A stretch of 64,000 nt of DNA from assembly GCA_950097015.1 (NCBI GenBank), contig CATNEN010000001.1, forward strand, positions 19,096,001 through 19,160,000. The letters run 5' to 3'. The stretch comes from Macrostomum hystrix (taxonomy: Eukaryota; Animalia; Platyhelminthes). Under the pieces are notes generated by a model that searched no databases, was not told the DNA's origin, and saw nothing but the letters and a program-made list of their open reading frames with translations. Made by a program: the position numbers and the translations under genes. Below are positions 28,709 to 52,432 of the stretch, piece by piece. Every line of letters begins with the position of its first letter. The stretch's first letter is position 1.

Positions 28709-31118
28709 CTTAAATGCCAGGCACGGCTTCCTGGGGGGAGAAAGTAGGAGTAATAGAGCGGGTCAGCAACTCTACGACTGGCTCTGCTCAGATGAACCAA
28801 CCCCAACCGTTCTAAACCAGGTAGGGGACTTCACAAGAATTGCAAGCAAGGGGGAGTGATCTCACGGAACGTGCTGGATCTTGGACTAGCCTTAGAGGCA
28901 CTCGTCCCCCTCATCACCAACTTCTGCGTAGGGCAGGACCTGGATAGTGACCACCTTCCAATCATAGTCACCTTGGGACTTAAGTCTCCCCTTCTGAATG
29001 ATCAAGATGCCCCCAGAAATTATACTAAAGCAAACTGGGATGCCTTCAAATCCCACATTAGCCAAAAGCTCCTGGATCCCTGGGTCCCTCCCTTGGAAAC
29101 CCCGCAGGATCTAGATGCTGAGGCAGAATATCTAACTGAGGCCATCCAGGGAGCGATTGCGTATGCAGTTCCTCTGAGGAAACGGATCTCACCCCTACCA
29201 CCCTACATCGTGGACAAAATCAAGGAGAGGAGGAAGCTCCGCAGACTCTCACAGTTCTAGAGAGGATTCGTACCGGATCAGTGCAAATAGGCTGGCCAAA
29301 CAAATCCGCAAAGATATCGAAAATTTCAAACAGCGTAAGCACACTAAAATGTGCGAGAAACTGGTTGAAAAAAGTGAAAATCAAGAAGTCAAAAACTTTT
29401 GGCGGGATGTAAAAGTTCTAATGGGACAGAAGAAGGGTAACACCATCCCCACCCTGACCTCTGGGTCCATAAAGGCCTTTACCGACCAAGACAAGGCAAA
29501 TCTTCTTGCGGAGTCGCTGGATGCCAAGATGCGCCCTGTCCCGACCACCAGCCTTGATTATGCTGAGACGGTTAACCAATACTCCCAGCTCAGGCTGCTC
29601 TATCCCTCTAAGCCGGACAGCAGGATTCCACTGCTCCCCTTAGAGGCACCAATCAAGTTCGAGGACGTCACTTGGGAGCTTGCCCACCTGAGGGAGGATA
29701 GTGCCCCAGGGCTCGACAAGATCCCCAACAATGCCCTCAAACGTGGTCTCGAACACGTCTCAGTGACCCGTATAACCAGTCTGTTCAACGCCTGTTTTGA
29801 ACAAGGCCACTTTCCCAGCCCCTGGAAAAAAGCAGTAGTAGTGATGCTACCAAAGCCTAACAAACCCCGAGATGACCCAAACTCATACAGACCAATCAGC
29901 CTAACATCCTGCCTAGGCAAAGTTTTTGAAAAAATCATTGCGCGGAGGCTAAAAAGCCACCTGGAATCCACGGGCGCACTGGGTGCAGATCAATGCGCCT
30001 ACAGGAAAAATCACTCCACTTATGACAATCTGTGCCGCTTGGTGCAGAATATCATGGTGGCCAAACACAAGAAAAAGAAATTATCCGCAGTCCTGCTAGA
30101 TGTCGAAGCAGCCTTTGACTCCGTCTGGCAGGACGCACTGCGGTACCAAATGATCCAGGCAAACCTCCCGGGGCGGGTTCTTAGTATCTGCTCCAGCTAC
30201 CTTCGGGACAGGTTGGTCCTAGTGAGGGTTAACTTAGCCCTCAGCCAGTCGTTTAAACTCAAGGCTGGCGTCCCCCAGGGTGGAGTTATCAGCCCACTCC
30301 TCTATCTGCTCTTTGTGAGCACCATGCCAACCCCAAAAACACCTGGAGTAGAACGAAGCCAGTTCGCCGACGACATGGCAATCTGGGCGTCGGCGGAAGG
30401 TTTCGTTAAGCTCAGGAAAAACCTGCAGCGCTACCTGGATGAAGTCCATAAATGGTGCGGCGTGCAGGGCATCAAAATCAATGCCGGAAAAAGCCAGGCC
30501 ATAACCTTCAATTGCAACAAACCCAGGGTAGGGTGCCAGGACAAACGGCCCCAACTCCACCTGGGAACTGTGCAAATACAAAACTGTGATGTAGTTAAGT
30601 TCCTGGGCATAAAGCTGGACACTAACCTGAGACTTAATGAACACGTAAAATCACAAATCAACACTTGCAGAGCGCAGGTGATGTGCCTTAGCAAGATTGC
30701 AAAAAAGACCAATCTGAAGAGCGACACTCTGAAAATGCTATACCGGGCTTACGTGGAGAGCACCATGACATATGGAGCACCCATTCTAACAATCCTAAGC
30801 CCGGGAAACAAGAGTGACCTTCAGAAAATTCAAAACATTGCCCTCAGAATCTTCTATGGGATCCCATCCTACATCTCCACCAGCTACTTGCATGAGCATG
30901 CCCAGATGCCCCTGGTAGCGAACAGGATTGATGATCTGGGGACCCGCTGGCTCCTTAAAGCCTGCAAGGCTAAAATCCACACCCTAGACAGGCGCCCTGA
31001 TCCGATTAGGATAAAACCGGGGTCCAGAATGCCTGTTCTACATCACCTCTGGGAAATCCTGGAGAGGAGAATAGCTGCTGCTACACCAGCGCCCAGGGGT
31101 CCAGGCAGGACAAACTAA
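28692..31118 (+). pseudogene. LINE ORF2 (C-terminal half of APE endonuclease plus reverse transcriptase), 5'-deleted with two frameshifts
   Basis: LVLGDLNARH (from ~28695), VLDL, SDHLPI, then APGLDKI, YRPISL, LDVEAAFDSV, GVPQGGVISPLLY, FADD, KFLGI; frame changes near 28855 and 29260. Confidence 0.92.
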
Positions 31119-33734
31119 AAGAGGCAGCTGTTGCTGCAACAGCAACCAAAAAACAATCTCCAGCACCCAACATATGCAGCAGTTTATCTCATGTTGTGCT
31201 TGCTCTTTAGTTTGGCAAAAAAGTGGAAAAAATAACAAGTCCCGGCACTAGACACTAAGCCATCCAGGTATTCCTTTGGGTCATTTGGCAAGTTTCTTAC
31301 CAGCTTACTGCAAGTAGGTGATATTGGGGTGAGAAGTGTTTTCTAGGTTTGAGTTACGAAGATTTCAAGCTTGAACTAGATTGGGGTGGGCGTATGGGCT
31401 TGGGCTTGTTGATTTATTATTTGGCTGAAGCATAACTTGGTATAAAGGGCAGTTGTCACTGTCACTTTAGAGGGCAGGGGAGGATGTTCTCTAAGTGATT
31501 TAGATAGAAATTGAATAGGCTTAGAACCGCTGGGGGGTCATATTTTTTTGGCAAGAGTAGGCTATAGAAATTAGGCGGGGTGGTGGGTGTCTGACAGTTT
31601 ACCTAACAATGGGCCGGAACTGGAAAGGTAAAGTACAATTTTTTTAGGGTTCAGGCTAGTTTATGGGCACGGGACAGTATTGGCTCAGCATTGCAAGGCC
31701 CTGCCAGTCCAATTCGCATCACTTTAAGAGTTCAATGATCATTAGATTATTTTACTAAAGATTTGCAATGCCCTATGCCCTCCGATACGGAGTCGTTTTT
31801 TGCGGACACAAACCAAACCAAACCAATTCACCAATGTAAACCCTAGACTGCTCCCCTTGTGTGTGATGCGCCAGGACTATCAATCTAGCTTTTTTTCTAT
31901 CAATTCTTCTGTCAAACCAATTTACCAATGTAAATCTGTCAAACCAATTTACCAATGTAAACCCTAGGCTGCTCCCCTTGTGTGATGCGCCAGGACTACC
32001 AATCTAGCTACAAACTCTCAAATAAATTTTTTCCATCAATTTTTCTGTAACCCTCCAATGCGAAAAAACGCACTACAATCTCAATCTACCTATAACTCAC
32101 CTAGGCTGCTCCCCTTGCGATGCGCCAAAAGCTATCAATCTAATTACTAAGCTCTAATCTTTCTGCTAAATTACAAATGCGAAAATGCGATACCCTAACC
32201 AATTTGGGGGTTGGCTAGGCTTTGCAAATTCATATGTACTATGCGCTTGTCTTAGATTTCCTCTTTTATCCTGATGTCCTAATCTTTGTGAGGACCCATT
32301 TTTTATCCCAATCATGCGCACTCAATATACCAAAAAATATATTCCATTCGTTTTTTTTATCGTGTAAAATATTTTTCGTCAATCATATCCAATAAATATA
32401 CAGTACCTACAGCGGAAGAGCCCCTCCCAGGGCTGACCCGCGGGTCTTAGACCCAAACCTCTTAACAACAACGAGTCCGCCGCGAGAAGGCTGACACATG
32501 GGCTCATGAAATTAGCGCTTTAAAATGTAGCGCTTCACAGCACATTGTATTGCATGTGCAAAGTGACCTGTAAAAATTTTGCTAGTTGAACGAATTGTAT
32601 CCAAAATTTGGGCTTACTGGTATTCATTTTAGCGCTCTTAAACTTAACGCTTCACAGCACCCACACAAAAGTAGGTGCAGAGTGACTTGCTGTAATTGGC
32701 TCTGTAGATATACCAATTTTTCCATGGGATAGGGGTGGTATGGTATTTTGTTCCAACAGGAAGACCTCAGGTAGCAAATTTTATGGGAGACGAGGTGGGA
32801 ATTTTCGGGTTATATCGGGTCAACTTGGTAGCAGATTTACGCAAGACAATAGGCGGTAAGGGTTTGACGCAATAAGGGACTCTTGGAGGAATCACAAATG
32901 GTAATGGGTTTCGACAGATTTTAGCTGGAACTCGATGAGTTTCTGGCGTAGGTTTAGGACTTTTAGGAGCACCTTCAGAAGAGTTGCAGCGCTCTTCCTG
33001 CTGCTGCTGTTCTGCGGGAAGTTTTGTTGACGCACTCGTCTCTTGGCTAGTTGCTGATGTAATTTGTACCTCGCCGATATCCTTGTACATCTCAACCAGG
33101 ATAGATAGCTGACTAGCAGCGAACTCAAGTTCCATGTATTGGAGTGGATGCTTTTCTTCTGTAGTAAGTTTGTCAATATACTTTCCTAATTTTCAGATTT
33201 TTGCTCAGCTTTTTTCGACTCATTATTCGGTCTTTTCGGAGAGCCATTTGGGCCTCATTGAAACGCAAACATAGCAATTTTCGTATAGCGCTTATATTTC
33301 AGTGCGCAGCAGTTCAGTTCTGCTCCATTTAGCTTACTATTTAGATTTAATTATTCGGAAGTCAGATTAAGACAAAAAATGAACATAAAGGCCTTCCTAA
33401 AATCACTTTCATCTTCTCTCGTTTATAACAACGTAAACAGTGTATTTAAATTCACGCGTATTTAAATTCACGCGCTAGCTCTGCAGCTATTTTTAGAACT
33501 GGGAAGACCACGCTTCCTCTATGGCTTTGCTCGCAAGCACTCATTTTCTCTCGTTATTGATATTGCATTAGAGCAGCAGCAGTGTACAGTATACTGAATG
33601 TATTGTTTCGTTCGAGATCGATTGACTGACTGATTGACACTGATTGACACAGACTCTATGTCTTATGACATTCAATAATTTGATTTAACTTTGACTGGCG
33701 GCGGCAGCGACGACAAGCAAAAAACACGGAAAGG

Positions 33735-34345
33735 CAATTAGAATATAATTTCTATGCTAAAGTCTACTCGATTATATTTCGCAGAGGCTAACTAATGCTA
33801 TCCAGCTGTACAATTGAATATTTATCTCACCTCGAAGTGGGCACAGGCGGACGGGGGCTGGCTGCTGGTACTGCTGCTTCTGCTGCTTCTGCTGCTTCTG
33901 CTGCAACTGCTGCTACTGCTGCTATTGCTGCTACTGCTGCTGCTTGGCAAATGGGCACAGGCGGACGGGGCTGGCTTCGGCTACTGATGCTGCTGGCTGG
34001 TGCCGGCCGGTTTAGCTGCACTGAGCTGAGGATGAGCATGGAAAAAAGCAATTAGAATATAATTTCGACGCTAAAGTCTACTCGAATATAGTTGCTGAGG
34101 CTAACTAATGCTATCCAGCTGTACAATTTAATTTTTATCTCACCTCGAAGTAAGCACAGGCGGACGGGGTTGGCTGCTGGTACTGCTGCTTCTGCTGCAC
34201 CTCGAAGTGGGCACGGGCAGATGGGGCTGGCTGCTGGTACTGATGCTGCTAGAGCTGTTGAGCTGCTACTGAGCTGCTACTGCTGCTACTGCTGATGCTT
34301 CTGCTGATGCTGTCGGTTGCTTCTGCTGATGCTTCTGCTGATGCT
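33735..34345. repeat. GCT-rich low-complexity region with an internal duplication
   Basis: GCAATTAGAATATAATTTC..CACCTCGAAGT..GGCTGCTGGTACTGCTGC occurs twice (~33735, ~34048). Confidence 0.7.
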
Positions 34346-35067
34346 GTCTGTTGCGCTGCAAATAAGAAAAAGGCTATGTATTTTAAATAGGCCATATAAG
34401 TATCTGTTCATAAATATGCATTACAAGCTGTGTTAATATAATAGGCCCTCAGATTAGTCTTTGTATATATAATAGGCCCTTCAATTAGTATTTGTATACA
34501 TATAACAATCGGTCTGTTAATCTAATAGTTAATAGCGCATGCAGTTCTCTATAATTATAATATATTAGTAATCTCAGTAAGTGTAATGCAGTTCTGAGCT
34601 GCGTAGAAATATATTAGATCCTAATGCTCGCTGTTGACATAATAATAGATCCTGTGGCTCTCTGTCGGTATAATATCTGTAGCCTGTTTTAACTTTGTCC
34701 AAGCAAATAGAAGGCTGACTGTTGATTCGAATTGTGGATGGATCTCTGAATTATATTTGACTGTAAGCTGCAGTTCGATCGAGCAGTTGGGCCGGGCTAA
34801 AACTAAAAGACTGCTACTTTGCTTGCCACCCTTTCTTTAAACCTTCGAAAGCGAAAGGGGGCGGCCCTGTCTCTAAATTCATAGTCTATGGTAAAAGGGT
34901 GTGGAAGGCCACTGCTCTGCCTTGAAAAAGAGAAGCAGTGTGTCTGCTTTAACCAATCGATAATGTCACCCCTGTGGCCATAGACTGAAGACGATCGAAG
35001 TCGTCTCTCTTTCCATCTGCAGGTCTGTCTGGCTGGCTCGGCACTGCTTTTGAGGGAGGAAGATCGA

Positions 35068-36445
35068 GTTGGAGGGGGTGGGTGTGCTGTTCACTGGAAA
35101 ATCGAATGTCTGAGCTTTTCGAGGGGTTTGCTAAAGCGTAAACAAATGTAGTACGCATATAGTGCAGGGCACGCTTCTTTTTGGAACTTCGGGCTCTCTC
35201 CCTCAGAGGGAGCCCCGTCTTAGTAGGAAATTAGCAGCAGCAGCAAGAACTAACAAACAAAATATTCGCTAACTTTTAAACGATTTACTCACATGCACTC
35301 TCTATACATATACTTGTAATGCGATAAACTCAATACATATAAACAACGATAAATAATGATTTCGATTGATTGCACAGACTGACACTGATTGATGCTTACT
35401 CTTTGCCCTTTTAATTTGCTATAATGATGAACCAAATCAAAGCTATAACGTATATATACTGTTTCTGTGCGGCGGTGGCAGCTGCGGCAGCGACGACTCA
35501 AGCCAGTGATTAGCTGTATTTCTTGCAACATGTTTTACGGCTTTGCGCTTTGCTGTCATCATTCAATACAGCTGATCATCATGGCCTACGCAGCAGAGCG
35601 CGCCGGAGCAGTCCGCGAGTCGATTCAGGCTGCGATTCGCCTGATTGTGACTGCTCGCGGCGGCGTGTGCTGGCTCCCCTGGCTGCTGAACAAGGGATTG
35701 CCAAGGGCCGGCATTAGTGCCGAGCTTCTGGCATTCGCCGATTTCGCCAACGCGGAAGCCGCCATCGAATCTACGCATGGACTCGCTGTTGTGTTCATGC
35801 AGGAGGGCAGCTACTTCGTTGTCGAGGGCCCGCCGACACAACAGCGGGTCCGTGAGGTGATGGCGGCCCAAAATCGGCAGATCCCCGCCTGGCCGCATTG
35901 GCGACTGGCCGACGCAGAGTCCGGCTACGCAAGTATTGCGGACTCAGAGGAGTCGGACTAACATTTTATTTTAGTGGGGAGTCGGGGATTGGAGGGGGTG
36001 TGCTGTTCACTGGAGAATCGAAGTCTGACCTTTTGAGGGGTTTGCTAAATCGTAAACAAATCTAGTATTTAGTGCAGGGCACGCTTCTTTTTTGGAACTT
36101 CGGGCTCTCTCCCTCAGAGTGAGCCCCGTCTTAGTAGGAAATTAGCAGCAGCAGCAAGAACTAACAAACAAAATATTCGCTAACTTTTAAACGATTTACT
36201 CACATGCACTCTCTATACATATACTTGTAATGCGATAAAATCAATACATATATATATGATTGATAACGAGATCGGTTGACTACCGATACTGACACAGATT
36301 GACTCTCACTCTGCTCTTTTAATTTGCTGCATTGTGTGTATTTCATATAACCGAACTGACGGTTTTATAAATACTGATTCCATTGCGGCGGTGGCATCTG
36401 CGGCAGCGACGACTCAAGCCAGTGATTAGCTATATTTCTTGCATC
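35068..36445. repeat. Duplicated upstream module (~35068-35525 and ~35988-36445) preceding each LOTUS gene
   Basis: Shared TTGGAGGGGGTG..GGGCTCTCTCCCTCAGAG(G/T)GAGCCCC hairpin..TATA-like box..GGCGGTGGCA..GACGACTCAAGCCAGTGATTAGCT. Confidence 0.85.
35581..35961 (+). CDS. Stand-alone LOTUS (OST-HTH)-like protein, paralog 1
   Basis: IRLIVTARGGVCWLPWL..FANAEAAIESTHGLAVV..G..TQQRVREVMAAQ fits the extended LOTUS pattern of TDRD5/TDRD7; clear paralog at 36460. Confidence 0.6.
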   Translation: MAYAAERAGAVRESIQAAIRLIVTARGGVCWLPWLLNKGLPRAGISAELLAFADFANAEAAIESTHGLAVVFMQEGSYFVVEGPPTQQRVREVMAAQNRQIPAWPHWRLADAESGYASIADSEESD

Positions 36446-36459
36446 ATTTAATCTAGACA

Positions 36460-36813
36460 ATGGAGGAAATCCGCGCAGTCGTGCACCGAGCCATCTCGAT
36501 GATCATCGACTCGTGCGGTGGTGTTATCGAGCTGCTCCAACTGTGCACCTCCATGCGAGCAGTTGGTGTCTCGCAGGGCGAGGTATTGGCAGCCGGCTAC
36601 CCGTCCTTCATCGCTGCCATACAGTCGACGCCTGGCATCTCCGTCGTGCGGATGGAGGACGGGCGCGTATTTGTCGTCAGAGGGCCGCCGACACGCGAGA
36701 GAGTGCGCGAGCTATTGGCTGCGCCAATAAACATTGCCGACTTTTGGCTGCGCACTTGGGCTGAGCGGGTCGATCGTGGTGGTGGTGCTAGGCCGGACCT
36801 AGGTCGGAATTAA
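36460..36813 (+). CDS. Stand-alone LOTUS (OST-HTH)-like protein, paralog 2
   Basis: ISMIIDSCGGVIELLQL..MR..AGYPSFIAAIQSTPGISVV..DGRVFV..TRERVRELLAA fits the LOTUS G(F/Y)xxxxxxLxSxP core plus the C-terminal extension helix. Confidence 0.65.
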   Translation: MEEIRAVVHRAISMIIDSCGGVIELLQLCTSMRAVGVSQGEVLAAGYPSFIAAIQSTPGISVVRMEDGRVFVVRGPPTRERVRELLAAPINIADFWLRTWAERVDRGGGARPDLGRN

Positions 36814-38037
36814 CTAAGTCGACAAATGGGAACCTAGAATCGGAGATGAATTAGGAACAGGGGTTTCCGGGAGATTAACTGACTTGGAGATGGATGGAAG
36901 CAAAATGGGGATAAATTTTTAACATGGGATTGAAATGGGGATAGTTTTTTGCTGTATACAGTATTTCTGATTTAGCTCTTCTTCTGCTTCTTTTCTTGCC
37001 CCCGATGGGAGTGGACCTGAGAGTTCCTTAGCTCGGTCCGACCTCAGGCCACTGCCCAGGGGCTCTCCTGGTCTTGTGCTTACCTCATTCTCTACTCTTG
37101 TCCAACCTTTCCTCTCGTCTCTCCTATCTTGACATCTCTTCCTTTTCATTTTCCCTTCCTTTAGATTTTCTCGCCGTCTTTAAACGTAACTTAATGTAAT
37201 ATTTTATTCATTATTATTCATTATTTACTCATTAATATTCATTATGTACTTTTTTAAATTGTAAATGTGAATGTTCAACATAAAAACATAATACTAATAA
37301 TAGCAAATAAAAAACATTACAATTAAAAAAAACTCAAATATTTGATAGTGATTTAGCAGATGTCGCAGCGCCTTTTACTTCGTTATTTCCTCAAATAACT
37401 AAAATATCAGAGAGCTTATAGCCGCCTGCGTGACTAAAAGTGTTGCACTATGCGCAACACAGTGCTTAGTGAATTCTCTATGTATGCAAGAATTAAGTGC
37501 TATGGCAGCTTGGGTCTGCGTCAGTGAGCTATTGGCCAATTAAGACGCGCCACATGCTACTTTTAAGCCATAGAGGACACAGCCACAAGGTCAGAGACTG
37601 CCGATCGATTTAATTTAGGCCAATAAATTCGCGGTCTGTAAGAATGCACATAAAATGAGGCCAGTACTTTTGGCCAGAGACTAAATTAATAACTGACGCA
37701 CTGTCGTTATGTGATCGGCATGTGAGAGAACAAGAAACCTCTTCTGGGGCTCTCACAGTGGGGAGTCTCGGCATACATGTAGCAGCCAAACATCGAACTC
37801 TATAATATAGAACTGATTGCTCGACGAGGTCGATTGATTGACATACACACGCTGATTGTACTACATAGCAAATGAAAAATTATGTTTTTAAAATTTATAA
37901 ATGATTCAGAGGCTTATAATTTTTACAGCCGGGATGTTGTTGTTGTTGTTGTTGTTGTTGTTAGGTACAACATAAAAATAAGTGATTTATGTGCTCAACG
38001 CAGCACTCAATCGAATATAAATGCAGCAGCGATGACA

Positions 38038-38140
38038 ACAGTACGGGACAATGTGCGCGCACAACACTTAAAATAGTGTATTCCATAATGGGATATAGGG
38101 GCATATATATATTTATTTAGATGCACGCACAACGGACTGT
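38038..38140. repeat. Degenerate inverted-repeat element with GTGCGCGCAC core (copy 1)
   Basis: ACAGTAC..TGTGCGCGCACAACACTTAAAA ... TGCACGCACAACGGACTGT; related to 41550 and 46300. Confidence 0.55.
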
Positions 38141-38225
38141 ACATAGCATGTGTTGATTGAGCATGTATACTGAATTCAGTTCATACACCTATATGGCACT
38201 GCATCAATTTGTAATAACAATAGCT

Positions 38226-41088
38226 ATGACAGACAACGAGTCGTGCTGCATCTTCTGTGGCGACGGCAGACCGCAGACGCATCCGAAGCGCCACTTCCTG
38301 AGGAGGCACGCGGAGGAGGCTGTGCGCCAATTCTGACTCGATGATGCCCCAGTCAAGGTGCGGCCGTCCGAGGCATCTTGGGCGGCGGCGTTAGCCAAGC
38401 AGCGTGCCCAGATGGTCTGGCTCTGCCTGACGTGCAGCACCCATACGCGCAGCTCAGCCAACACTGAGCATGTACACGCATGCCCAGCCTGCGGCAAGGT
38501 GCTGCGTAGGACGGCAAGGCAGCACAGGTGTCCAGCAGTGCCAGCTGTTGTCGCTACCGTTTCTGTGGACCAACAGCAGCCACCGCCTCCGCAGCAGATG
38601 CCACCACCGCATCCGCAGCAGATGCCACCACCGCCTCCGCAGCTGCCTTCCGAGGCAGAACCAGCTGAATACGAGGCTGGGTCTCTGTTGGCCGAGCTCT
38701 ACAGCATCGCCGCGCCGTCAGTTGACGGTCGACAGTCAGCGGCCAGTGCTCGGCTGTCGTCAGCCAGCCGTCCAGCCGTCCGGCGACGCCAATTTGACCC
38801 GACTGCGCCGCTGCTGCTGATGTCCTCACAGGATGACGCTGACGATGGAGATGACGATGTCGGCTTGCAGGAGCTACTGCCCGGAACCAGCATCAGAATG
38901 CGGACTCTGTCGACGGTCCATACGGTGGCAGCAGAGTCTTCCTCTTCGGCTGCCTGTCTGCAGTTGGCGGTGCAGGCCACTAAGTCGGCGCTTAATCGTC
39001 CCAGCACGTCATCGGCTGTGGTGTCGGCTGCACAGAGGCCGCTAGTGAAGCTGGCAGCTACTCCGCCGAGGCAGCGTCGAGCAGCTGCAGCAAGGTGGGC
39101 TGCGTTGAAGATAAAACTGGCCAGTGCCGAATTCGACCGGCTTCAAAAGTCCATATTCGGAGCAGAACTGCAGCAGGAAGCGTCGACAGCCGATCAGAAG
39201 CAGCAGCAACAGCGTCGCGGTCCGCGCTGTCGACACTTTCGCACGTCGCCACCTGCGAAGCCCGTGCCACCAGAGCTGCTGCAGCTGTTGGGTGACCGGC
39301 CCAGCATCTCCGCAACGGTGGAACGCCTGCGGGAGCTATGGTGGAGGGACCCATCGCGGGCCAGGATTGCGGCCAACTTGTGCCACCAGCAGCGTTGGCG
39401 GGACATTAGCAGGTCCGTGAGCTCGACGCTTCTACGCACCTGGCAGCGAGCGGGGATCTCGCTTGCAGACCTGCTGCTTCAGCCGGACAGGGTGCAGGAC
39501 TGCTTCAGCGCTGAAACAGTCGGTGACGCCATGCAGCTGGCCCAGTCGACTGCTGCTCGCAAGTGCCAGGAGCTTGTCAGCATCTGCCGCTGCATGGAGG
39601 GCTGGCTACGCGTGAGGGGCCTGCGAGGCGCCAATGCCATCATGGCCGCCGTTGGCTTGCGCGAAGCCGAGCTGTTCTGCAGCATCGACTCACCCTTGCC
39701 TGACACCGAGCGCCCTGCTATTGAGGACGTTGACTCTGTCGGCAGTGGCGTCTGCTGGAGAATGCAGTTGGCGCAGAAGGCCAACAACCCGCTGGCGGCT
39801 GAGCAGGCTCTCATCGCCCGCCTTAGCAGCGTGGTGCAGCAGGCTCGTGGCGAGTTCGGCAATGTCCGAGCCATACAGCAGGTAGGCTATAGCTGCACAG
39901 CAGCTGCATTAATGACAGTTAGTTCTATTTGGTTTCGTGCTGCTATCTACTAGAAGTAAACGCAACCACATTTATACTATGCAGGCCGTCTACAAGCTTG
40001 GCCACAATGAGCGGCAGGTGGCCTTCATGGACACTTACATCAACGTGGACGAGGTTGATGCCGTGTTCGCCCGCCGTGATCGTTTTTTTGCCATGCTACA
40101 AAGGCACAGCTGGACTTTGCTGCCAGTCGACGGCGAATGGGGCATGCAGGCAGCAGGTGTGGTCGCTGATGGCATCGCTGATGTCACCAAAGACAACGGC
40201 GAAGCAGATGATGGTGCCTTCAGTCGCCGGATGGTTTGTCTGCGGAGGATTGTGCAGGAGATGCTGTTCTACTGCAGCATTGAGCAGCCCCTGCGACTCC
40301 TGCCGTGGATCTACATCCGTCGGCGACACCTGGTCGACCGTTCGGTTCGGCGAAACGCGTCGGCCGACCAAAAACAGCTGTTCCGCCAACACACGCAAAG
40401 TGCAGATGGGGAGAGCGGGCCGTCCGCTGCCGATCTGGCTGGGCACTCGCATCTCGTCCTGCCGCTGCGTGAAGTGCCGCACAAGGTCGGACACTCCGGC
40501 GACCCAGCCAGGATGGTGCTGCCGGATCTATTCTGCGAGGCCTTGCTGCGCCTGCACGACGAATATATCGTGCCGTCGCTTGCTGCTCGCGGCATCGAGC
40601 AACCGGAGTCGCCGACCGTCTTCATTGATGTGTTCGGCGGTGTGTACAGCCAGTCGGCAATGAGCCGCATGATCAGCGCAGGCGGGCAGCGAGTACTGGG
40701 TCGGCACTATGTGGCCACGCACTGGCGTCGCACCCTCTGTGCCGTAGTGCTCATGATGGAGCCGGAGCAGCTGGATATGTTCGCCAGAGCGCACGGCACA
40801 TCTGCAGCTGTCATCCGGTACAATTATGGGCACAATGCCCAGATGGCCACCGAGATGGGCACAGTAATTCGCAGCCGCGATATTGTCCGCCGGTTTGTGG
40901 TGCCATCAGGTGACGCAGAGATGCGACCAATAGTTAGGCCGCCGACCCAGGGACTCATCAGCAGCCTGGCTGGTGGAAGTGGGGAGGTGGCGGCGAGCAC
41001 CCAACGAGCCGACGCAGTCCTGCACGGTAGACCGGTGGCCGGAAAGCGACGGCGGCTGCACTCAGTGGCGGAGCATAATTTTGATTGA
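38226..41088 (+). pseudogene. Zinc-finger plus tyrosine recombinase gene (exons 38226-39881 and 39985-41088), one premature TGA at 38334
   Basis: N-terminal CxxC/H clusters; phase-0 GTAGGC..TGCAG intron joins the two track ORFs in frame; C-terminal R (QPLR), K (HKVG), HxxR (HWRR), GTS-x7-Y arrangement of the phage-integrase fold. Confidence 0.75.
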
Positions 41089-41303
41089 TTCGCCCTGCCT
41101 GCCCGCCTGTCTGTCTGCCTGCTTTATTTAAGATTTTATATATACAATATATATAGTATATATATATTTAAATATTTAAATAGTGAGTGAAAAACACCGT
41201 GGGGCAGATAAAGGGGGCCGGGACAGAGAGAAAACACGCAGAGAAAACATGCACAGGCCTTCGAGGGAGGGATAATTGAATTCGTTTGACTGCATGTTAC
41301 TGC

Positions 41304-41341
41304 AGCGTATAAAGCGCGCACATGTGCGCGCTTTATACGCT
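41304..41341. repeat. Perfect 38-bp palindrome
   Basis: AGCGTATAAAGCGCGCACA|TGTGCGCGCTTTATACGCT. Confidence 0.95.
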
Positions 41342-41549
41342 AATGTTATTATAATTGATATTATATGCTATAGTTAAGAATATTGATTGTATTGATTGAC
41401 TGATTACTCCCGTTGATAATATTATACTTTATTGTTTTTGTTGATAGAATTATTTAATTAGCCATAGATTTATCTGACAATTATTAAACAAATGCTGCTA
41501 ACTGCTCTACTTATAGTAGTCAAGTAAGCAATTTAATTTTAGATTTAGG

Positions 41550-41664
41550 TACAGTTCATAGTGCGCGCACAATACTTAAAAAATATATAAGGATCGTCGT
41601 TCTAAAATTAGAGCTGACATGCCTTATATATTTTTTAGGGAATGTGCGCGCACTACAGACTGTA
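41550..41664. repeat. Inverted-repeat element, TA-CAGT..ACTG-TA, GTGCGCGCAC core (copy 2; MITE-like)
   Basis: TACAGTTCATAGTGCGCGCACAAT..ATGTGCGCGCACTACAGACTGTA. Confidence 0.75.
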
Positions 41665-43154
41665 GACATTGAATTTCGTAGAATTTAGCGCGAATTTGAA
41701 ATTTTAGTTTCTTATATAAAATCTATAAATAACTGATTAGCACTATATGCAGCTGTTAATTGCCGTTATTAAATCGTACTACTATATTATATGTATAGCT
41801 TTTTGCGTCCATCCAAATTGTATTTTAATGCACACATCATTACTACATGTATTTTAATAGATTGTTGTTTCAGATGCCGCTTGTTGATTATCATCTTAAA
41901 TTAGTTTTTTTCAAATCCATACGTACCGTCTACATGTAGTTCTTGATCGAATGCTTTTTCTTGATTTATGTCCTTTATTCACACAATAATGCATGCAGTC
42001 AGCTTTTCATACCATATACTAGTATACTTGCTCAAATTATTATAGCTCAATTATTATAAATTATAATAACACAAATAGCGCCCAAATAAGCACATAACAA
42101 CTGCGTGTGTGTAAAATTATTTTTAGACTACTATTAATAAAGGAATGCGATAAACTCAAGACATAGACAAAGCTTAGGCACATAGAAACTAAATTTTATC
42201 AGGAAGGACTGTATTGCTCATCTTGAGCACACAAGTCAAAGAGAGCTAGCTCGCGCACTGATTGATTTCTCTATGCCAATCGATTAAGACAGACTCGATC
42301 GTTCCCAAGCTACACTTTGATTTTCAATACCAACTCTATTAATCAACCAAATCAGCTCCTTCGTGATCTACTATTTCGTTTCGACTGCCCCCTACACTGT
42401 TCCGATTGCTCCGCTCCAGCTGCGACCCCAACGACGACGACTGCGTTTAAAGTGATTTTTATCTGCGCTCCACAAGGTAGGCAATCATTGTTAATTATTC
42501 TAGCTGCCCATCTATCTAACTTGTTGGAGAGCAGCAACAGCAACAACAACAACAACTATTTGTTGGCGGTGAGGGATTAAAAAGTTTAATGGAGCCGGTA
42601 CAGAAAAAGTAGAACGGCAATAAAATGGGGACAATTGAAATTGTCGACAGCCTGCGACATATGCTAAATGAAAATATTGACTCTGAAATAATAGAACTCA
42701 AAATAAAAGCAATCAGATAAGAGCGAGAAGCGATCCTGAGAACAAGTAATAAATGCCATCTCCATCTCTTAGCACATCTAGACTGACGAGCAACAAAAAC
42801 ACTAGGAAAACACTGCGCGCTATTTAATTCAATTAAACTAATCCCATCTAATGCTTTATAAATTGCTATAGTCCGCGCACATTTCTGCTACCCCGTTTTC
42901 TGCAACTGCGTGCCAGGTATAGATTATAATATATGGTGCTGTTAAACAGCCGAACCCAAAAGCCATTCCTTATTTAGCCCAATAAGGACTAATATTTTGT
43001 TATGTACGAGCTCGTAATATTTTGGCCGTCTAGCTATTTCTGCCTGCCCACATCTGCTAACCCGCTTTAAGATGGTGGTGGAGACAAAATACGGGCGCAG
43101 GGATGAAATAACTTAGCAATAGACAGACAGACAGACAGACATATAAAGGCGGCC

Positions 43155-45947
43155 TCATTCAACCTGGGCGTTGGCGGCGGCGGCTCCGAACATCGGCTGC
43201 TGGCGGCACCCCCCCTGGCAGGCCTGGATGTCGTGGTCGACCTCGACGCATGTATTGCCCTCGTTGCGCAGGCGCCGCTGCACGTCAGCCGGGTAGTCGT
43301 CAGGTGAGGCGTGGCCGGCCATGATCACCAGCCGTTGGCCCCAGTCCAGGTAGACGTGCGCCTGGTGCTTCGCATTGACCAGGAAGCTGTTGCCGTTCAG
43401 CAGGCGCAACAGCGTGGTCTCCAGGTCGCCGCCCTCGAACATGTGCGGCCGCACCTCGTCCAGAAAGATGACGGAGTGGCGCGCGGTGTCCAGGCCGTCG
43501 AACATGAAGTCATTGCCACCGAAGCGCTTGATGACCGGACAGAAGACGCGCTCCTGGCCCAGGTGGCGCTCGACGGCGGTGGTCTTGCCGACTCCCGACG
43601 GCCCGTAAAGGTACACAACGCCCGACTGGTGGCGAAGGGCTGTGCAGACGGCCTCTCGGAGCGGGCACAGGTTCCTAATGTCGGCAGCCTCGGTGGAACA
43701 TGCGGAACAGCCGGCGAGCTGCTCCCTGCGAATCCGGCGCTGGCGCTGCACGTCTCTAAAGACCCCCAGCAACGTGGCGCGCATCTGCTGGTGGGCCAAC
43801 AAGAAGCCGTCAGTCTGGTCGGGCAGGTTGGCAGTCAGCGGGTAGGACAGCGCCCACCGAGTCGCTTGCACCAGCATGCTGCACTGCGTGGCGCCGATCC
43901 CGATCAGCAGCGGGTAGCCGTCGTGCTGCGTCAGGCTCCGCAGCACACTGTCTGGCGAGCGGACGCCGCACAGCGTCAGGGTGGTCCGGTCGGGCACCAC
44001 AAAGCAGCGTCCCTCGTCTCGGCTAGGCAGCAGGCTGAACAGCAGCTCGTACAAATGCCAGCCGGCCGCGTTGGTCTCCAGGCGCACGAAGCCGGACAGA
44101 GTGCGGTGTGGCCGATACTCGCTGTGCTGCTGCTGCTGCTGCTGTTGCTCCATCTCGTCGACGGAGAGCGGGTCAGCGACTAGCCGCCGGTCGCAGAACT
44201 CATCCATGCCGACGCAGAGGCCCGGGCTGGACGCCAGGACGAGCTCGACACAGTGTGCCTCCAGAGCCTCGCCCAGATATACCTTGGCACGCCCTGTTTA
44301 TGTAGGCAGCATGGAAACAGTGGATGCCAGCAGCTGGTTATATGATTCAGAGCTTATGAACAAAGCAAGTGACTCACCGACGAAGCGCACCTTGTCGATG
44401 TGGAAGACGTGCAAATAGCGGCGCCCGGTCAGAATGCCGCTGTCCTCGGGCAGTCGCTCCGCAGGAGCAGCACCGGTCATTGCGAGCGGCCGGCTGACTG
44501 AGCGCGTCACAGTGAACTGCTGCTGTGCTGCTGCCGCATTAAGCAGCGGATTTTGGCCCAGCCGTCGCACCCCTCGGCCGCCTCGTTGTCCTCTGGCGCC
44601 GCCGACCCCGCTCCCGCTCGCCTCGCTGTCCCCCTGCTGTTACTGGAGGAAGTGAATAAGCTGTGCCGCAGACGCCGGCGGACTGTAGCTGAAGGGCACC
44701 AGCGAGGGAGGACGCTCGAGCTGCACCTGCTCTTGTTGCTGCAGCGGCTGTGGTGTTAATATGCGCCACCACTCCTCGCCGACAGGGACGGACTGGCTGG
44801 CCTCATTCATAGCGGCCACCACGGCTGCTGCGAATGCCGCTGTGCCAGGCGACACCACGTAGGCCGTCGTCTCATCTTCCGGACGCTGAGACGGTGTGGT
44901 CTTGGCGACTGCTAATCGTCGGCCATCGGGCTGCGAGTCTGGCACCATGGCGCCCACAATGGAGCAGTCGGCAGCAGCAGCAACAGCGGGAGCAGTCGTT
45001 TCGAGCCGCTGGAAACGGAATCTCCGCCTCCCTGGCTGCTGTTGTTGGTCGGCCGCGACTTGAGGCGGTTTCGGCACCGTGCTGGCGGCCTCCTCCATTT
45101 CCGCATCAGCGCCCGACGGTGGGGGATCTGCAGCGACTGACAGCGCAACGGTGGACGCCTCGTAGTCCAGCAGTGCCTGCAGAGCATCGCGGTCGTCGCT
45201 ATCCATCGCCGCCTCCTGCTCGTTAGGCTCCGATGGCTCCGCCTTTGTGCGAGTTGCCGCTGTCGGCCTGCCGTTATCGGCGCGCTCGTCGTCGACGTCC
45301 TCAATCTCGATGACGACGGGGCTGCGAGGCTGTAGGGCTGCCGTGGACATGTCGGGCGCATCAGACGCCGCCCCGTCGCCATCGCCGCAGTTGGCAGGAG
45401 CATGTCGCCTGACGTGCCTGATCGCTGCCGGCGATGACCATCTGCTGGTGGCCTTCTTGGCACTCCGGTGCTGATCTCCGAGCCAAGCCAGCATGCTCCC
45501 TTTTGGCGCAGTCGAGGCTGAGGCTGCCATCGCGTGGGAGATGGGCGCGTAGACGGCCGATATACTGGCAGGCGGTGGCTGCTGATTGCCTGTGGACATC
45601 TGGTCACTGGCAGGCTGCTGCTCTCCAGTGTTTAGGCGCATGACACCGCTCAATGGCAGCAGGCTGAAGTCGTCGGCGTCGCTGCTGATGTTAGCCACCG
45701 CTGCTGTCTGCACTGGGGTGAAAGTATATATACGCTTTGGGCCTGGCGTAGATTCTGCGGCTGCTGCATTGACAATCCGACGTTGAGAGGGAGCGCTCTT
45801 TCTTTTTCGCTGTGATGGTGGCTGGCGAGTTGATGACGCTACCGGCCCGGCGGAGTTACTATCTTGGGCAACTCTCTCAAACTCGTCCAGCGCGGCCGCA
45901 ATTCGCTCATCGTCGCTGTCGCAGCCGGTTGAAAAGTTGAACGACAT
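43155..45947 (-). pseudogene. CRESS-Rep-like protein with SF3 helicase (exons 45947-44378 and 44293-43155), long disordered N-terminus, one premature TAA at 44640-44642
   Basis: Walker A GPSGVGKT, Walker B IFLDE, B' VNAK, motif C region VIMAGH, Arg finger QRRL; GTGAGT..ACAG 84-bp intron keeps frame; Rep-like N-domain with degenerate motifs II and III. Confidence 0.7.
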
Positions 45948-46166
45948 TCTGTGCTTCCGCAGGTTAATTATAGGCGCGTTCAAATTTGGATGTATGAAAA
46001 TGAGCAGGCTGCAGAAAGCCAACGCAGTCCCAGGTACTCAACTTCAACTGGGTGCAACAGGGTGGGATTCGCTATTAATAATAGAGTCCCAAGTACGTCC
46101 CAAGGAGGAGGAGCAGGCTATTTAGGATGAGCAGCAGATAGTACCAGTGTTACTACTACTTATAGT

Positions 46167-46204
46167 AGATCAATATGCGCGCACATGTGCGCGCATATTG
46201 ATCT
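46167..46204. repeat. Perfect 38-bp palindrome
   Basis: AGATCAATATGCGCGCACA|TGTGCGCGCATATTGATCT; same 18-bp core as 41304-41341. Confidence 0.95.
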
Positions 46205-46299
46205 TATAGCTTTAAACTGATAGATTGAGATTCTATTAATAGGTGCTTAATTAGGTTAATTCGGATCCCGGTTAAGTTGATTGTGTACTTTTAGCTAGA

Positions 46300-46432
46300 A
46301 GTACAGTTCATAGTGCGCGCACATTACTTAAAAATATATAAGGACTTGCCTGCTATTTTTAGGTAGATAAGCACCTCGCATCGTCTTATGTATATATTTC
46401 TTAGGGATTGTGCGCGCACCACGAACTGTACT
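46300..46432. repeat. Inverted-repeat element, TA-CAGT..ACTG-TA, GTGCGCGCAC core (copy 3; MITE-like)
   Basis: AGTACAGTTCATAGTGCGCGCACA..TGTGCGCGCACCACGAACTGTACT. Confidence 0.8.
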
Positions 46433-46586
46433 CTTATACGGTCTATTTTTAGGTTATCCAAAAAAAACTTCCCGGTATCGAGTTGGATCTGCCACCTTAG
46501 TTCTTTTATTGGTGCAGACTTGGTTTGGGTTCACAAACAGGGATAAGTTATTTTAACTGTCTAGTAGCTAAGTCTTTTTGCTGCTG

Positions 46587-47006
46587 CTACTGCTCCATTC
46601 GATATTCGCGACTCCGGAACAACTCTCGCAGTCTTGCCCTTTGCTGCACGCCGCGCCAGTAGTCCAGCCCGTGTAGAATGTGCTGCAGCTCCGAACAGGT
46701 GTCCTCCAGCAGGCCTAGCAGCTCGGCCAAGTCGAAAGCCTCGTTCTCTGTTAGGCAGGTCACCTCCAGGATGGTCTCGTAGCCCGCAGCTGTCTGGTGT
46801 TGTAGCAGCCAGTCCAGGAGGCTCTTCAGCAAGGTGTGTAGCTGGGTGGCATTCAGCTCAGCATTCGGGCAGTGGCGCTGCAGGCAGGTCAGCTGCTCCA
46901 GTCGTCCTCGGTACGCCAGGAACGGGGCCAGGCAGGCGATGTCGCATCTGGCCAGGAGTGCCACGATGGCCGGCGAGCCGAACAGCGCCACAGGATGAGC
47001 ATTCAT
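46587..47006 (-). CDS. Unknown Leu-rich, probably all-helical 139-aa protein
   Basis: GC-rich ORF in AT-rich flanks, TATA-like sequence upstream; no family confidently recognised. Confidence 0.5.
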   Translation of the reverse strand: MNAHPVALFGSPAIVALLARCDIACLAPFLAYRGRLEQLTCLQRHCPNAELNATQLHTLLKSLLDWLLQHQTAAGYETILEVTCLTENEAFDLAELLGLLEDTCSELQHILHGLDYWRGVQQRARLRELFRSREYRMEQ

Positions 47007-47383
47007 CGTGGTTCTACGCACCCAACAATGTCGTGAGTGCAGCAGCAACGCGTCTAACACTAGCTAATACCGCTATAGTCACTATATATCCCACAGTATA
47101 TTGGAAAATTTTCGATCGATAATCACAGTGCGAAATGGGTCCCTAACTCAGGTGCGGGCAGTGGCATGGGGCTGCAGTCATCATGTAACGTAAGATAATA
47201 CCCTGCATGAAACTCATTTCATAGAATGTTCGAACTGCATTCCGCTGCTGTCACAACTGCGCCATTTGAAACAAAATTATCATGACTGGTATATGTATTC
47301 AATCAGCCAACCGATCTCGCACCTAACACTGCAACAATTGCTATCAGTAGTCATCAATTTAGAATTATAGCAAAGCGGGTCGC

Positions 47384-47805
47384 GGGCTCTTTTGCTGCAT
47401 AAGAAAGCATTAAGGATTGAGTCGGGCTCTTTTGCTGCATAAGAAAGCATTAAGGGTTGAGTCGGGCTCTTTTGCTGCATAAGAAAGCATTAAGGGTTGA
47501 GTCGGGCTCTTTTGCTGCATAAGAAAGCATAGGGGACTCGGCCGGGCTCTTTTGCTGCATAAGAAAGCATAGGGGACTCAGCCGGGCTCTTTTGCTGCAT
47601 AAGAAAGCATAGGGGACTCGGCCGGGCTCTTTTGCTGCATAAGAAAGCATTAAGGGTTGAGTCGGGCTCTTTTGCTGCATAAGAAAGCATAGGGGACTCG
47701 GCCGGGCTCTTTTGCTGCATAAGAAAGCATAGGGGACTCGGCCGGGCTCTTTTGCTGCATAAGAAAGCATAGGGGACTCGGCCGGGCTCTTTTGCTGCAT
47801 AAGAA
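47384..47805. repeat. 40-bp tandem repeat, ~10.5 copies, two alternating variants
   Basis: GGGCTCTTTTGCTGCATAAGAAAGCAT followed by TAAGGGTTGAGTC or AGGGGACTCGGCC. Confidence 0.95.
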
Positions 47806-48227
47806 TCGCTACATAAAAAACCATAGACTACACAGCCGGGCTGAATTGCCGCTATTGCAATTTCAATAGAGAGAGTGAGTGCGAGCGAGGAAAATATGTG
47901 AAGTTCTGCTACACGCCGCGAACCTGATTCGCGTAATTTCAGGACAGCCGCACGACCCGCGAGGGCTTTGCGGCGGTATGTAGAGCCATATTCAGGTACG
48001 TGGCATCTCTTAAAATGCGCTCTTTGGTGAGAAATCAGAGCCCCGCATATCGGACAGAGACACACCGGCTTCGCTTTTGAAGTCGCCTTCGCGAAGTCAA
48101 TCATCGCCTGAATCCTGTCATCCTCCAGAGCGGGGTGCCTTTTCTCGCAATGCCTCCAAAGCATGTAGGATCGACCAGTCCAATTGGAACAGACAAGACA
48201 GGACACTTTCGCGTGTTTGTTGGGCAT
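47490..48227 (-). CDS. Double C2H2-like zinc-finger protein (first ~105 aa plausible; remainder reads through the minisatellite)
   Basis: CLVC..HCEKRH and CPIC..HFKRCH; shares W..HC..HP.L..RI.A..LCP.C with 17418-17954. Confidence 0.55.
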   Translation of the reverse strand: MPNKHAKVSCLVCSNWTGRSYMLWRHCEKRHPALEDDRIQAMIDFAKATSKAKPVCLCPICGALISHQRAHFKRCHVPEYGSTYRRKALAGRAAVLKLRESGSRRVAELHIFSSLALTLSIEIAIAAIQPGCVVYGFLCSDSYAAKEPGRVPYAFLCSKRARPSPLCFLMQQKSPAESPMLSYAAKEPDSTLNAFLCSKRARPSPLCFLMQQKSPAESPMLSYAAKEPGRVPYAFLCSKRARLNP

Positions 48228-48373
48228 GGTAAGTTTTGTGTGTTTACAGTTTGAAGTTTAAAGTTTTTTTAAGTTGCCTGCGTTTCGCTGAAATCGGTGA
48301 CGTATACAGGTGCAAGTATGTAATTTGTAATTATGTAAATGCTAAAAAAGGAAAATACGTTTATCAAGCACGG

Positions 48374-48831
48374 CAAGCAATGAAAAAAATAAGAACGAGA
48401 AACGCTGTTTAGGAGCCCCTCCATTTATTTGACAGACAATGAAACTGTGAGCTATATAATAATAATAAAACGGAATTGAACGGAAAAGCTGATAAATGAA
48501 CGAATTTAATAGTGTCATTAGTCCCACGAATAAAAACAGCTAACGTAATTACACTGCCAGTCCGCTGGATAGTGCAAACATGCACGGTAATTAGCAGATT
48601 TTATTCGCGCTCAACGAGTCCGCCGCGAGAAGGCTGACACATGGGCTCATGAAATTAGCGCTTTAAAATGTAGCGCTTCACAGCACATTGAATTGCATGT
48701 GCAAAGTGACCTGTATAATTTTGCTAGTTGAAAGAAATATGTGTCCAAACTTTGGGCTTACTGGTATTAATTTTAGCGCTCTTAAACTTAACGCTTCACA
48801 GCACCCACACAAAAGTAGGTGCAGAGTGACT
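48374..48831. repeat. ~460-bp dispersed repeat; uninterrupted copy of the sequence split by the LINE (27430-27682 plus 32478-32688)
   Basis: Colinear identity from GACAGACAATGAAACTGTGAGC through CAACGAGTC to GTAGGTGCAGAGTGACTT. Confidence 0.9.
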
Positions 48832-48902
48832 TTACAAGGCAGCGCTTGACTTCAATTAAAAACACAAGTAACGGTGGAATCATCAGTACACTGGTTGGAT
48901 AC

Positions 48903-51283
48903 TTAATCGGAGTCGCTATCAGAAGACTCCGATAGATATTTTACAGCATCAGTCACGCTTTTACTTGCAACATCTTCAAGCAGTCTTCTAAACAATTCCC
49001 GAAATTGAGCGGCTAAGCCCGGCTGATTCGCTAAGTCATCACAGAGGCTCTGCAAATTAACCTGAAGGTCAACCCACTCATCTGAAATAATATGCGCTTC
49101 TTTTAGGCGTTTATATTTGTTACTGACGTCTATAGCCCGCTGACGAAATCGGATGGAAAGGTCGGTTCCAGACAAATGTTCATATTTCGCACTACGCGGT
49201 TTTTTATATTCATCGAAAGAAGCTCTGTCTTCAATTGGAAGACGAGCGTAGAGTTTTTTCATGTCGGATGCATAACTTTTAACCTTTCGCAAGCACATTC
49301 TGGTTTGACTTTGGCCAACTGACTTACCAACCTGTTTACTCCAATGATCTCTGTGCACTGCAAGAGCGCGTAGCTCACATAGGATATCATCTTCCGAGTT
49401 GTGTACAGCTACTCGGAGGGAATCTTCATACCATTGGGAGCCTAAATCCAAAATTTCATCCTCAGAGATGACCAGACTGTCATTTCGGACCCCCGAGTGC
49501 TGCAAAATCGCAGACTGGCTTTGTAGCTCTTTTAGTTCACTTAGAATGCTTTTTCCCGCACCTACCATAAGCTTAATACGTTGTGTAAACCACCCAGAAG
49601 CGCTAAGAAGCTGTTGTGCATTAAAGAAGTATAGAATATGCGCCATGTATTGTGCTCGTCGGTCTTTTCGCATGTACTTTAAAAACTTACCGAACGGCCT
49701 GAGTTGAGACCAGGCTCGCTCAGTATTCTCTCCATCGCATAGACCTGCGCCTGGAGTAACGCGAACAGAAAACTTTTTTTGACAACTGGGCAGGTGACCA
49801 AGAGCATGAAAAGCGTTTATTGCACAGCTACTCGCTTGAATGTTGGCACCAGACTTCGCAATAGCGGACGTAACCCGGCTGGATACGCGACAGCCTGTGA
49901 ATTGGGATAAAGAGTAAGTCATGTTGTCATATAACTGTACACAAGCAACAGTATTTCATAGATTGTATGCATTTTATAAAATAATAATAAACTTACCCAC
50001 GTCATATACGACAAGTAATTCCTTAGACACTTTGACGTTTCGCAGAAAGTGTTCAAGGCACTGTTCCAGGTAGCAAAACTTTTCTCCACCAGTTGTGATA
50101 TTTGAGCCACACAAAAGGCGATTGTGACGACAGAATAATCCAAAGAAACCCGTGACATCATGTCTCTGCTCACGGCTTAATGGTTCATGAGCACCGGCCT
50201 TCCAATTAGGACAATTCTGTTCCTCTGCTCGATTTTTTGGCACATCCGCTTTAATATCTACATAGACAAGCGGCGTAGGTAATGGACGACCATCTGATGG
50301 TATTTCCAGTTGTGTACGCCCCTTGGCTTTAAAGCGCTGCCAACCAAATAGAGCATCTGCACAGACAACAGTTTTGCGCACAGCGTGATTATCTGGACAG
50401 AGAAGACAATTATTTGGCCATTTTGCTGAGGCCATTTGCAGGTGGCGAAACCGCAGCAAAACATCATGTCGTTGAATGCGTTGATAAGTGCTTTTTACAA
50501 GAGCCAAATTATATGTACCTTGTCCCAGAGTTGGCCCAATGAGCAGTGTACTGACCGCTCTGTGAACAGGCAACTGCCCAGTCATACACAAACTGTCTAG
50601 CAGGGACAAAAAGGTAAAAGAAAAGAATGCATACCCATCTGAATCAGGCTTTGACCCTTCGCAACAAGGGAAGAACCCTTGAGAAAGGAGTGCACCAATA
50701 AGATCACAGGAGTCGCAGGTAATAAAAATGACCTTTACGCTTCCAGCCAGATCTATAAGGTCAACTTTTGTAGCCGCACAGACATTCAGATTCAATTTAC
50801 TAGAAGCGCAGCAAAACATTTCAAAAGCATCGTGAGTAGCATCCAGTTCCTGAAACATTAGACTCTCCTTATTCCATATGAGAAACTTGTGGGCTGAAAA
50901 CTTTTTATGCGTCTCATTCTTACAGCTGGCACATAAGCTAAGTCGACAAGTAACACATCGATATACACCTTCGTGCTCATAGCAAGAGGAACACAGATTT
51001 AAGAGAAAATGCTTCTCGTAACTACCTCTGTATTTCTCAGCAAAGCTGTCAAAATCTACCCATTCAACATCTTCTACTGTAGGAGCAAAAGACTCAGGCA
51101 TACCGACATCATTCTCGGTGCTAGCTTCCACTGGAACAGTTGAGTAGTTTCAGACACAGGACGCAGAGATGTTGAGCCTCGATTTCGGCCGCTAATGATT
51201 GTCTTAATCTTTCTGGGTCGCCCACGACAGCCAGTTTGCAGTGTAGCTTTGACAACACGCTTCAGTTCGATGCCGCGATACAT
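48903..51283 (-). CDS. KDZ (Kyakuja-Dileera-Zisupton) transposase with N-terminal CxC cysteine cluster; intron 49895-49996; probable frameshift near 51145
   Basis: CSSC..RCVTC..LCASC..H..H..W, GFFP, CADALFG, TGFFGLFCRH, GEKFCY, spliced YDVG|C, FHALGH..CQ, GAGLCDGENTERAWS. Confidence 0.85.
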
Positions 51284-52370: not shown

Positions 52371-52371
52371 T

Positions 52372-52392: not shown

Positions 52393-52432
52393 CGAGTTAG
52401 CCTTTTACTCATTCACTGCGGATACGAACGCC

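Follow-up and report, generated by a model that had tools for sequence, protein, structure and literature searches.

A polymorphic 14.7-kb insertion in Macrostomum hystrix carries a predicted tyrosine recombinase and a CRESS-Rep-like helicase

A block of 14,726 bp, here called the element, lies within a stretch of 64,000 nucleotides of the flatworm Macrostomum hystrix (contig CATNEN010000001.1, positions 19,096,001 to 19,160,000; the window). It carries a spliced gene for a predicted tyrosine recombinase (YR), a convergent gene for a Rep-like superfamily 3 (SF3) helicase, two paralogous mini-genes, an orphan open reading frame (ORF) and a set of palindromes. The block is a real, recently mobile unit: an insertion that is polymorphic between samples, with defined ends and a 3-bp shared core. 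As an earlier account of the locus (the sequence-only reading) had described, its genes are GC-rich and its spacers AT-rich, with 61-64% GC in the ORFs and 36-40% in the spacers. The features that set its limits are as follows, all but the tandem repeat, which comes from a repeat listing, being placed by the empty-site joint described below.

33171-47896, unstranded: whole element, 14,726 bp, from the joint 33170 to 47897
33171-33187, plus strand: left end, with the TGT core, the remainder of the 8-bp spacer and a 9-bp arm of the predicted att site; X1 and X4 have this end on other flanks
47888-47899, plus strand: right end, a 9-bp arm and then the second TGT
47897-48227, minus strand: 5' half of the split zinc-finger target gene, outside the element (also from the restored frame)
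32767-33170, minus strand: 3' half of the split target gene, outside the element (also from the restored frame)
47383-47805, unstranded: subterminal tandem repeat, 40 bp x 10.6

Eight public runs contain the stretch, none of them listed as RNA; contigs of five (X1 to X5, of which X2 and X3 are a single sample) were compared with the window, and contig joints within the element that were of low depth or short-sided were excluded from the established results. Position 33170 is joined directly to 47897, skipping 14,726 bp, in contigs of four of the five runs (X1, X2, X3 and X5; X4 is without the joint). By comparison, the joint appeared in three of four runs in one (X1, X2 and X5) and in three of four in another (X1, X2 and X3), so that the empty site spans three samples and two studies; contigs bridging the filled left junction were found in none of the four runs of the second comparison. 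The three letters TGT at the joint can be assigned to either side, the joint sliding by 3 nt, and are the sole sequence common to both ends of the element. The sequence-only reading had set limits of 33600-48230 without finding termini; the joint places the ends at about 33171 and 47896.

The empty site also forms one continuous reading frame of about 244 codons, running from the zinc-finger ORF at 48227 into the ORF that ends at 32767. The zinc-finger ORF, previously counted as cargo, is therefore the target gene that the element has split. This target gene has a paralogue at 17421-17957 on the minus strand, amid tandem repeats (34% identity over 74 aa, pairwise E 1e-10). A repeat at 32469-32688 and 48612-48832 might be taken for a terminal repeat of the element; we reject this, as it lies outside the empty-site joint and is part of the host element.

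The left end is attached to two other flanks, in X1 and X4 (two of four runs), and AA(G/A)TT-TGT-CAATA is present at all three left junctions. When the right end is joined to the left, 9-bp inverted arms matching at 8 of 9 positions flank an 8-bp spacer that begins at TGT or, counted differently, 10-bp arms matching at 9 of 10 flank a 6-bp spacer. Inverted arms around a short spacer characterise loxP, FRT and dif sites, and the joined ends are predicted to form a loxP-like or att-like site of this kind. Random joins of spacer DNA equalled this junction in 134 of 20,000 trials, and in 212 of 50,000 in a narrower window (0.4-0.7%). The inner part of the arm is resembled by the flanks of the target. 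A 3-bp repeat with short inverted ends is formally compatible with a target duplication made by a DDE-type transposase acting in trans, for example from the neighbouring KDZ element, whose transposase gene is 1 kb away; the empty form might otherwise be a deletion or an assembly artefact. We regard these explanations as very improbable, since the empty form restores a continuous ORF and is seen in two studies, the core is identical at all three junctions of the left end, symmetry of the arms about the 6-8-bp spacer arises only once the ends are joined, and the recombinase gene of the element is apparently under selection. The empty site, the two other flanks and the att-like junction together bear out the earlier proposal of one mobile unit that combines a recombinase-type signature with a CRESS-type helicase. 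The two large genes of the element are:

38226-41088, plus strand: YR-like gene of 919 codons with a Cys/His-rich N-terminal part, an intron at 39882-39984 and a stop at codon 37
43155-45947, minus strand: CRESS-Rep-like SF3 helicase gene of 902 codons with a low-complexity N-terminus, an intron at 44377-44294 and a stop at codon 436

Both had been reported from the letters alone as bearing one stop each, and this description holds. The YR intron is of 103 nt, GT-AG and phase 0, and the predicted splice is supported by a single-ORF relative, P0005, which aligns with the protein on either side of the intron and thus matches both exons within one ORF. For exon 2 the best clusters in the protein atlas belong to Phage_integrase families (score 0.97). 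A search of 1.84 billion representatives yielded seven relatives, two from M. lignano and the remainder fragments, and across them are conserved an R (in RLxPW), a K, an RR and a late Y, which we take, as we do the histidine positions, to be the motifs of that name in tyrosine recombinases. A search confined to longer relatives, of 1,898-5,000 aa, returned none and is uninformative. At codon 37 the copies in X1 and X4 have another codon in place of the stop. Selection on the recombinase is apparent from exon 1, where 10 of the 15 differences listed between this copy and those of X1 and X4 are synonymous against 25% expected (p 0.0009), a result tempered by its drawing on 15 of more than 500 differences with the stop site omitted. 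A second, distant M. lignano YR subfamily consists of seven records (P0013, P0007, P0008 and P0010-P0014) at 27-32% identity, one of which has 1,084 aa and an N-terminal Cys/His part; UniRef labels the subfamily Ras-GEF or C2H2, probably wrongly.

The Rep-like gene is convergent with the YR gene and its intron, 84 nt and GT-AG, contains a second in-frame stop. Its atlas matches are Rep clusters of CRESS and pCRESS type (0.92-0.95). Of its four relatives, one, from M. lignano, has 69% identity, and none extends over the N-terminal domain; as with the YR, the named relatives are M. lignano proteins. Judged by eye, the region before the helicase keeps to the order of Rep motifs I to III; PHRTL (585) and SLTQH (643) occupy the places expected for motifs, and neither HUH nor YxxK is seen, so that the nicking domain seems to be dead through loss of HUH and the catalytic tyrosine.

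Two bacterial loci considered as relatives were rejected, the match being to Walker A only. Searches of plasmids and phages by tblastn gave nothing better than E 1, and no entry of a viral fold library scored E<=0.001.

The recent inactivation of this copy proposed in the sequence-only reading is plausible; both stops lie ahead of the enzyme domains, and in-frame ATGs come after them, at 38412 in the YR gene and 44480 in the Rep-like gene. Neither intron was seen spliced in the compared contigs.

Besides the circle model developed below, the main rival explanation is a Crypton- or Starship-like YR transposon in which Rep, a captured CRESS-virus gene, is passive cargo with no role in copying. 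That HUH and the catalytic tyrosine are not visible by eye would fit such a gene, as would the two like-oriented palindrome units (41304-41664 and 46167-46432) that bracket it in the manner of a separately acquired module. Copies are also mosaic, the X1 copy differing from this one at 16 of 782 letters in part of the YR gene (about 2%) and at 0 of 855 in the 3' part of Rep, and Starships haul cargo while mobilised by a YR alone (PMC10104507). Nevertheless, the Rep-like gene has an intron and shares the GC style of the YR gene, its helicase motifs, including Walker A and B, are conserved in relatives at 52-69% identity, and X1 also holds a diverged Rep copy (record 4), which makes passive carriage appear rather unlikely.

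The palindromes lie in the spacers:

38037-38141, unstranded: long palindrome in a decayed copy, ahead of the YR gene (alignment)
41304-41341, unstranded: perfect 38-nt palindrome (hairpin scan)
41550-41664, unstranded: long imperfect palindrome (hairpin scan)
46167-46204, unstranded: second perfect 38-nt palindrome, with the same core and different outer arms (hairpin scan)
46300-46432, unstranded: second long imperfect palindrome (alignment and hairpin scan)

The two perfect palindromes are the longest in the window, and the core GCGCGCAC occurs in 14 copies in the 14.7 kb inside the element against one in the 49.3 kb outside. In line with the related palindromes of the sequence-only reading, hairpin folding was significant for the two long hairpins (z scores -10.5 and -6.7) and for the two 38-mers (z -6.0 and -6.9); for the third, decayed long copy it was not (z -1.3). 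Contigs from further samples cover the spacers and connect palindromes with genes (records 3, 9, 13 and 16). The palindromes at 41304-41341 and 46167-46204 have a core of 18-20 nt in common, and their outer arms differ yet are each perfectly self-complementary, a pattern suggesting that one arm has been corrected with the other as template. X5 has a palindrome-like piece corresponding to 41493-41605 with different neighbours on both sides, so that related palindromes exist in further places, belonging to other subfamilies or to a dispersed repeat. Rfam gave sub-threshold hairpin matches only (9 rows). The window has no canonical CRESS nonanucleotide, and two loose matches in the element, at 43022 and 37204, are outside the palindromes.

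The smaller genes and related features are:

33613-34360, plus strand: upstream motif (motif matrix) and, after it, an Ala-rich stretch with internal repeats that may be a decayed gene
35581-35961, plus strand: mini-gene L1, 126 aa, paralogue of L2, within a tandem duplication of about 915 bp
36460-36813, plus strand: mini-gene L2, 117 aa, modelled as a winged helix with LOTUS domains nearest in shape (structure model and Foldseek)
46587-47006, minus strand: orphan ORF, 139 aa, with the shared upstream motif at 47319 (ORF listing and motif matrix)

The two mini-genes and the orphan ORF were correctly recognised at the outset, L1 and L2 being 33% identical paralogues inside the tandem duplication. 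Motifs shared upstream of the genes had been claimed as well: a matrix built from four such sites found a fifth, on the right strand and 313 nt upstream of the orphan ORF, with 19.6 bits against a best score of 12.8 bits outside the element, while the matrix scan found none upstream of Rep. The structure model of L2, a confident one, is a winged helix (pLDDT, the predicted local distance difference test, 80.9). In Foldseek it was matched to TDRD5 3s93 with a TM score by target of 0.73, root-mean-square deviation (rmsd) 2.6 and E 0.081, and to TDRD7 3rco with a TM score by target of 0.69; among the rows listed these LOTUS domains are best by TM score and rmsd (2.5-2.6) with E of 0.08-0.15, and a TFIIIC winged helix is first by E-value. 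Pfam gave no match to the mini-genes. LOTUS-like would seem a fair label for the modelled L2. What suggests a germline role for the mini-genes is this resemblance in fold (Foldseek E 0.08), and that they might be decoys of germ-granule LOTUS proteins is speculation. Joints in X1 skip or rearrange mini-gene cassettes across 35113-37851, some of them short-sided, and coverage of L1 is thin; the number of cassettes may vary between copies. The orphan ORF gave no convincing family in profile and database searches; by eye it looks like a death-fold domain, a resemblance with no tool support. In X1 and X2 its neighbour past 47064 differs.

Some of these features recall a virus. The Rep resembles those of Cressdnaviricota, dispersed palindromes and a shared promoter-like motif are reminiscent of viral layouts, and the block could be an integrated virus genome, segment or satellite with its particle genes elsewhere or unrecognised. 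Polinton-like viruses can combine a YR with a superfamily 2 helicase, together with virion genes (PMC11071296). Here, however, there is no GC-rich unassigned ORF above about 140 aa outside the spans of the named genes; ORF lists and family scans gave no capsid, packaging ATPase or PolB in the element, a search that a very diverged small capsid might escape; and three scans of viral contigs gave no relatives. We therefore consider a viral origin of this kind quite improbable.

The reading that we favour, with moderate confidence, is that the block moves as a circle by means of its own predicted tyrosine recombinase and that the Rep-like helicase copies the circle. Its two parts are not equally firm: that the element is excised and integrated as a circle by its own recombinase is very likely, and copying of the circle by the helicase from the palindromes, using host polymerases, is on balance probable. 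Recombination at TGT would link the ends into a circle whose junction would be the inverted arms round the 6-8-bp spacer, and the recombinase would insert this circle at targets resembling AARTW-TGT. The helicase, in a step with less support, would load at the repeated palindromes and unwind the circle for host polymerases. Papillomavirus E1 and polyomavirus large T are the helicases with which it may be compared; action like theirs, rather than like that of a rolling-circle nickase, is proposed because the nicking residues seem to be lost. The mini-genes would be variable cargo. The element is most likely a recombinase-mobilised integrative replicon that works in the manner of a Crypton or Starship and has the two genes found paired in bacterial pCRESS plasmids.

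Several observations weigh against this model. No circle junction, with the element joined end to end, was among the contig joints listed, and in the compared contigs the right end was not seen on an alternative flank and no contig carried YR and Rep together. The contigs with other flanks stop 28 and 30 letters out, 5-6 nt beyond the point predicted for a crossover at TGT; this excess might come from a variable 6-bp coupling sequence or from graph branches that are unrelated. The predicted YR assignment draws on the atlas and on motifs judged by eye: exon 2 had zero matches in Pfam, PHROGs, NCBIfam and PDB sequence searches (in Pfam no family at E<=0.5, nor at E<=1 for the relatives), its single-sequence fold was unusable (pLDDT 32), and both histidine positions appear to be substituted throughout the family. 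For the Rep-like protein Pfam gave a P-loop, with PF00910 below the cut-off (E 0.017), and no profile aligned an HUH-like domain. Relatives with a DNA context outside the source organism were found neither in the three scans of viral contigs nor in metagenome contigs.

The surroundings of the element are rich in other mobile DNA. On the minus strand, 48903-51149 is a gene for a KDZ (Zisupton-type) transposase that has a B-box and CxC1. The zinc-finger target gene sits just downstream of it, between two copies of a repeat of about 460 bp (27429-27682 with 32469-32688, and 48374-48832), and lying as it does between KDZ-associated repeats, it suggests that the element probably landed in another transposon. 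Within the KDZ gene, 102 nt with CT..AC ends (49894-49995) are skipped in X4 and X5, a skip that X1 and X2 do not show; this would be a spliced intron, and X4 and X5 may therefore hold RNA. The left copy of the repeat is split by a non-LTR (long terminal repeat) retrotransposon at 27683-32468, with a 9-bp flanking duplication and an upstream ORF for an AlkB-type 2OG-Fe(II) oxygenase (PF13532, E 4e-23). A Ty3/Gypsy retrotransposon at 51705-60845, with identical 666-bp LTRs and a pol frame of 1,733 codons, is a very recent insertion. Identical frames of 190 codons in inverted orientation at 21655-22227 and 25007-25579 suggest the long terminal inverted repeats of another element.

Comparison with known systems places the element closest in gene content to the pCRESS integrative plasmids of bacteria, which have a YR and a CRESS-type Rep and have been proposed as ancestors of eukaryotic single-stranded DNA viruses (Kazlauskas et al, 2019; PMC6668415). 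They too have a CRESS-type Rep-SF3 protein beside a YR in one att-bounded unit, with no capsid and with variable extra genes (PMC6668415). The element differs in being in an animal nucleus, in having spliceosomal introns in both genes and a 3-bp core, and in a Rep seemingly without HUH and tyrosine; no bacterial relative of it was found, bacterial genomes giving Walker-A matches only. Like Cryptons, it is a eukaryotic DNA element with a YR, a clean empty site and a short motif that its end shares with the target (PMC3212892, PMC9977147), and Cryptons insert and excise cleanly at such a short shared motif (PMC9977147). Repeats of 5-6 bp are given for CryptonF and CryptonS and none for animal Cryptons in a survey whose main text never uses the word helicase (PMC3212892). 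By contrast, the TGT core here is of 3 bp, a helicase is present, and YR exon 2 has no DUF3504 or GCR1_C match in Pfam. Starships are likewise YR-mobilised and cargo-bearing, with a direct repeat and short inverted ends (PMC10104507), and a circular intermediate has been shown for them (10.64898/2026.09.21.753150). They are fungal, with a DUF3435 captain as first gene, whereas the YR of the element lies 5,055 bp from the left end, has no DUF3435 match and is accompanied by a Rep-like helicase.

Replitrons and Helitrons are eukaryotic transposons with a Rep-family protein, that of Replitrons having been linked to CRESS Reps (PMC10288648). Theirs is an active HUH protein with no YR, and Replitrons have no helicase and Helitrons one of superfamily 1, where the element has a YR and a helicase of SF3/AAA type (PMC10288648). 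Some Polinton-like and MELD viruses join a YR with a helicase and encode virion proteins (PMC11071296), of which none was found in the element. DIRS, Ngaro and VIPER elements are set apart by reverse transcriptase and RNase H, neither of which was found inside 33171-47896 in ORF lists and family scans. The gene set is apparently undescribed for an animal: the literature searched, which misses most subscription journals, Repbase and Dfam, has no description of a nuclear eukaryotic element that pairs a YR with a CRESS Rep. A bolder proposal, which we hold as tentative, is that the element could be the founding member of an undescribed animal class of integrative nuclear plasmids, with their own YR acting at a loxP-like site, a non-nicking CRESS-derived helicase copying the circle, in parallel to the passage from CRESS Rep to papillomavirus E1, and LOTUS-fold genes acting on germline silencing.

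A recombinase adapted to eukaryotes, with a short target and a cargo of 14 kb, would be of interest for genome engineering. The recombinase-driven transposons of animals are mostly Cryptons without defined ends, and here the ends are exact, the site is att-like and the insertions vary between samples of a laboratory-type flatworm, so that the circle model is directly testable in an animal. Within the continuum between pCRESS plasmids and single-stranded DNA viruses, an animal counterpart with introns would be an additional stage that has no capsid.

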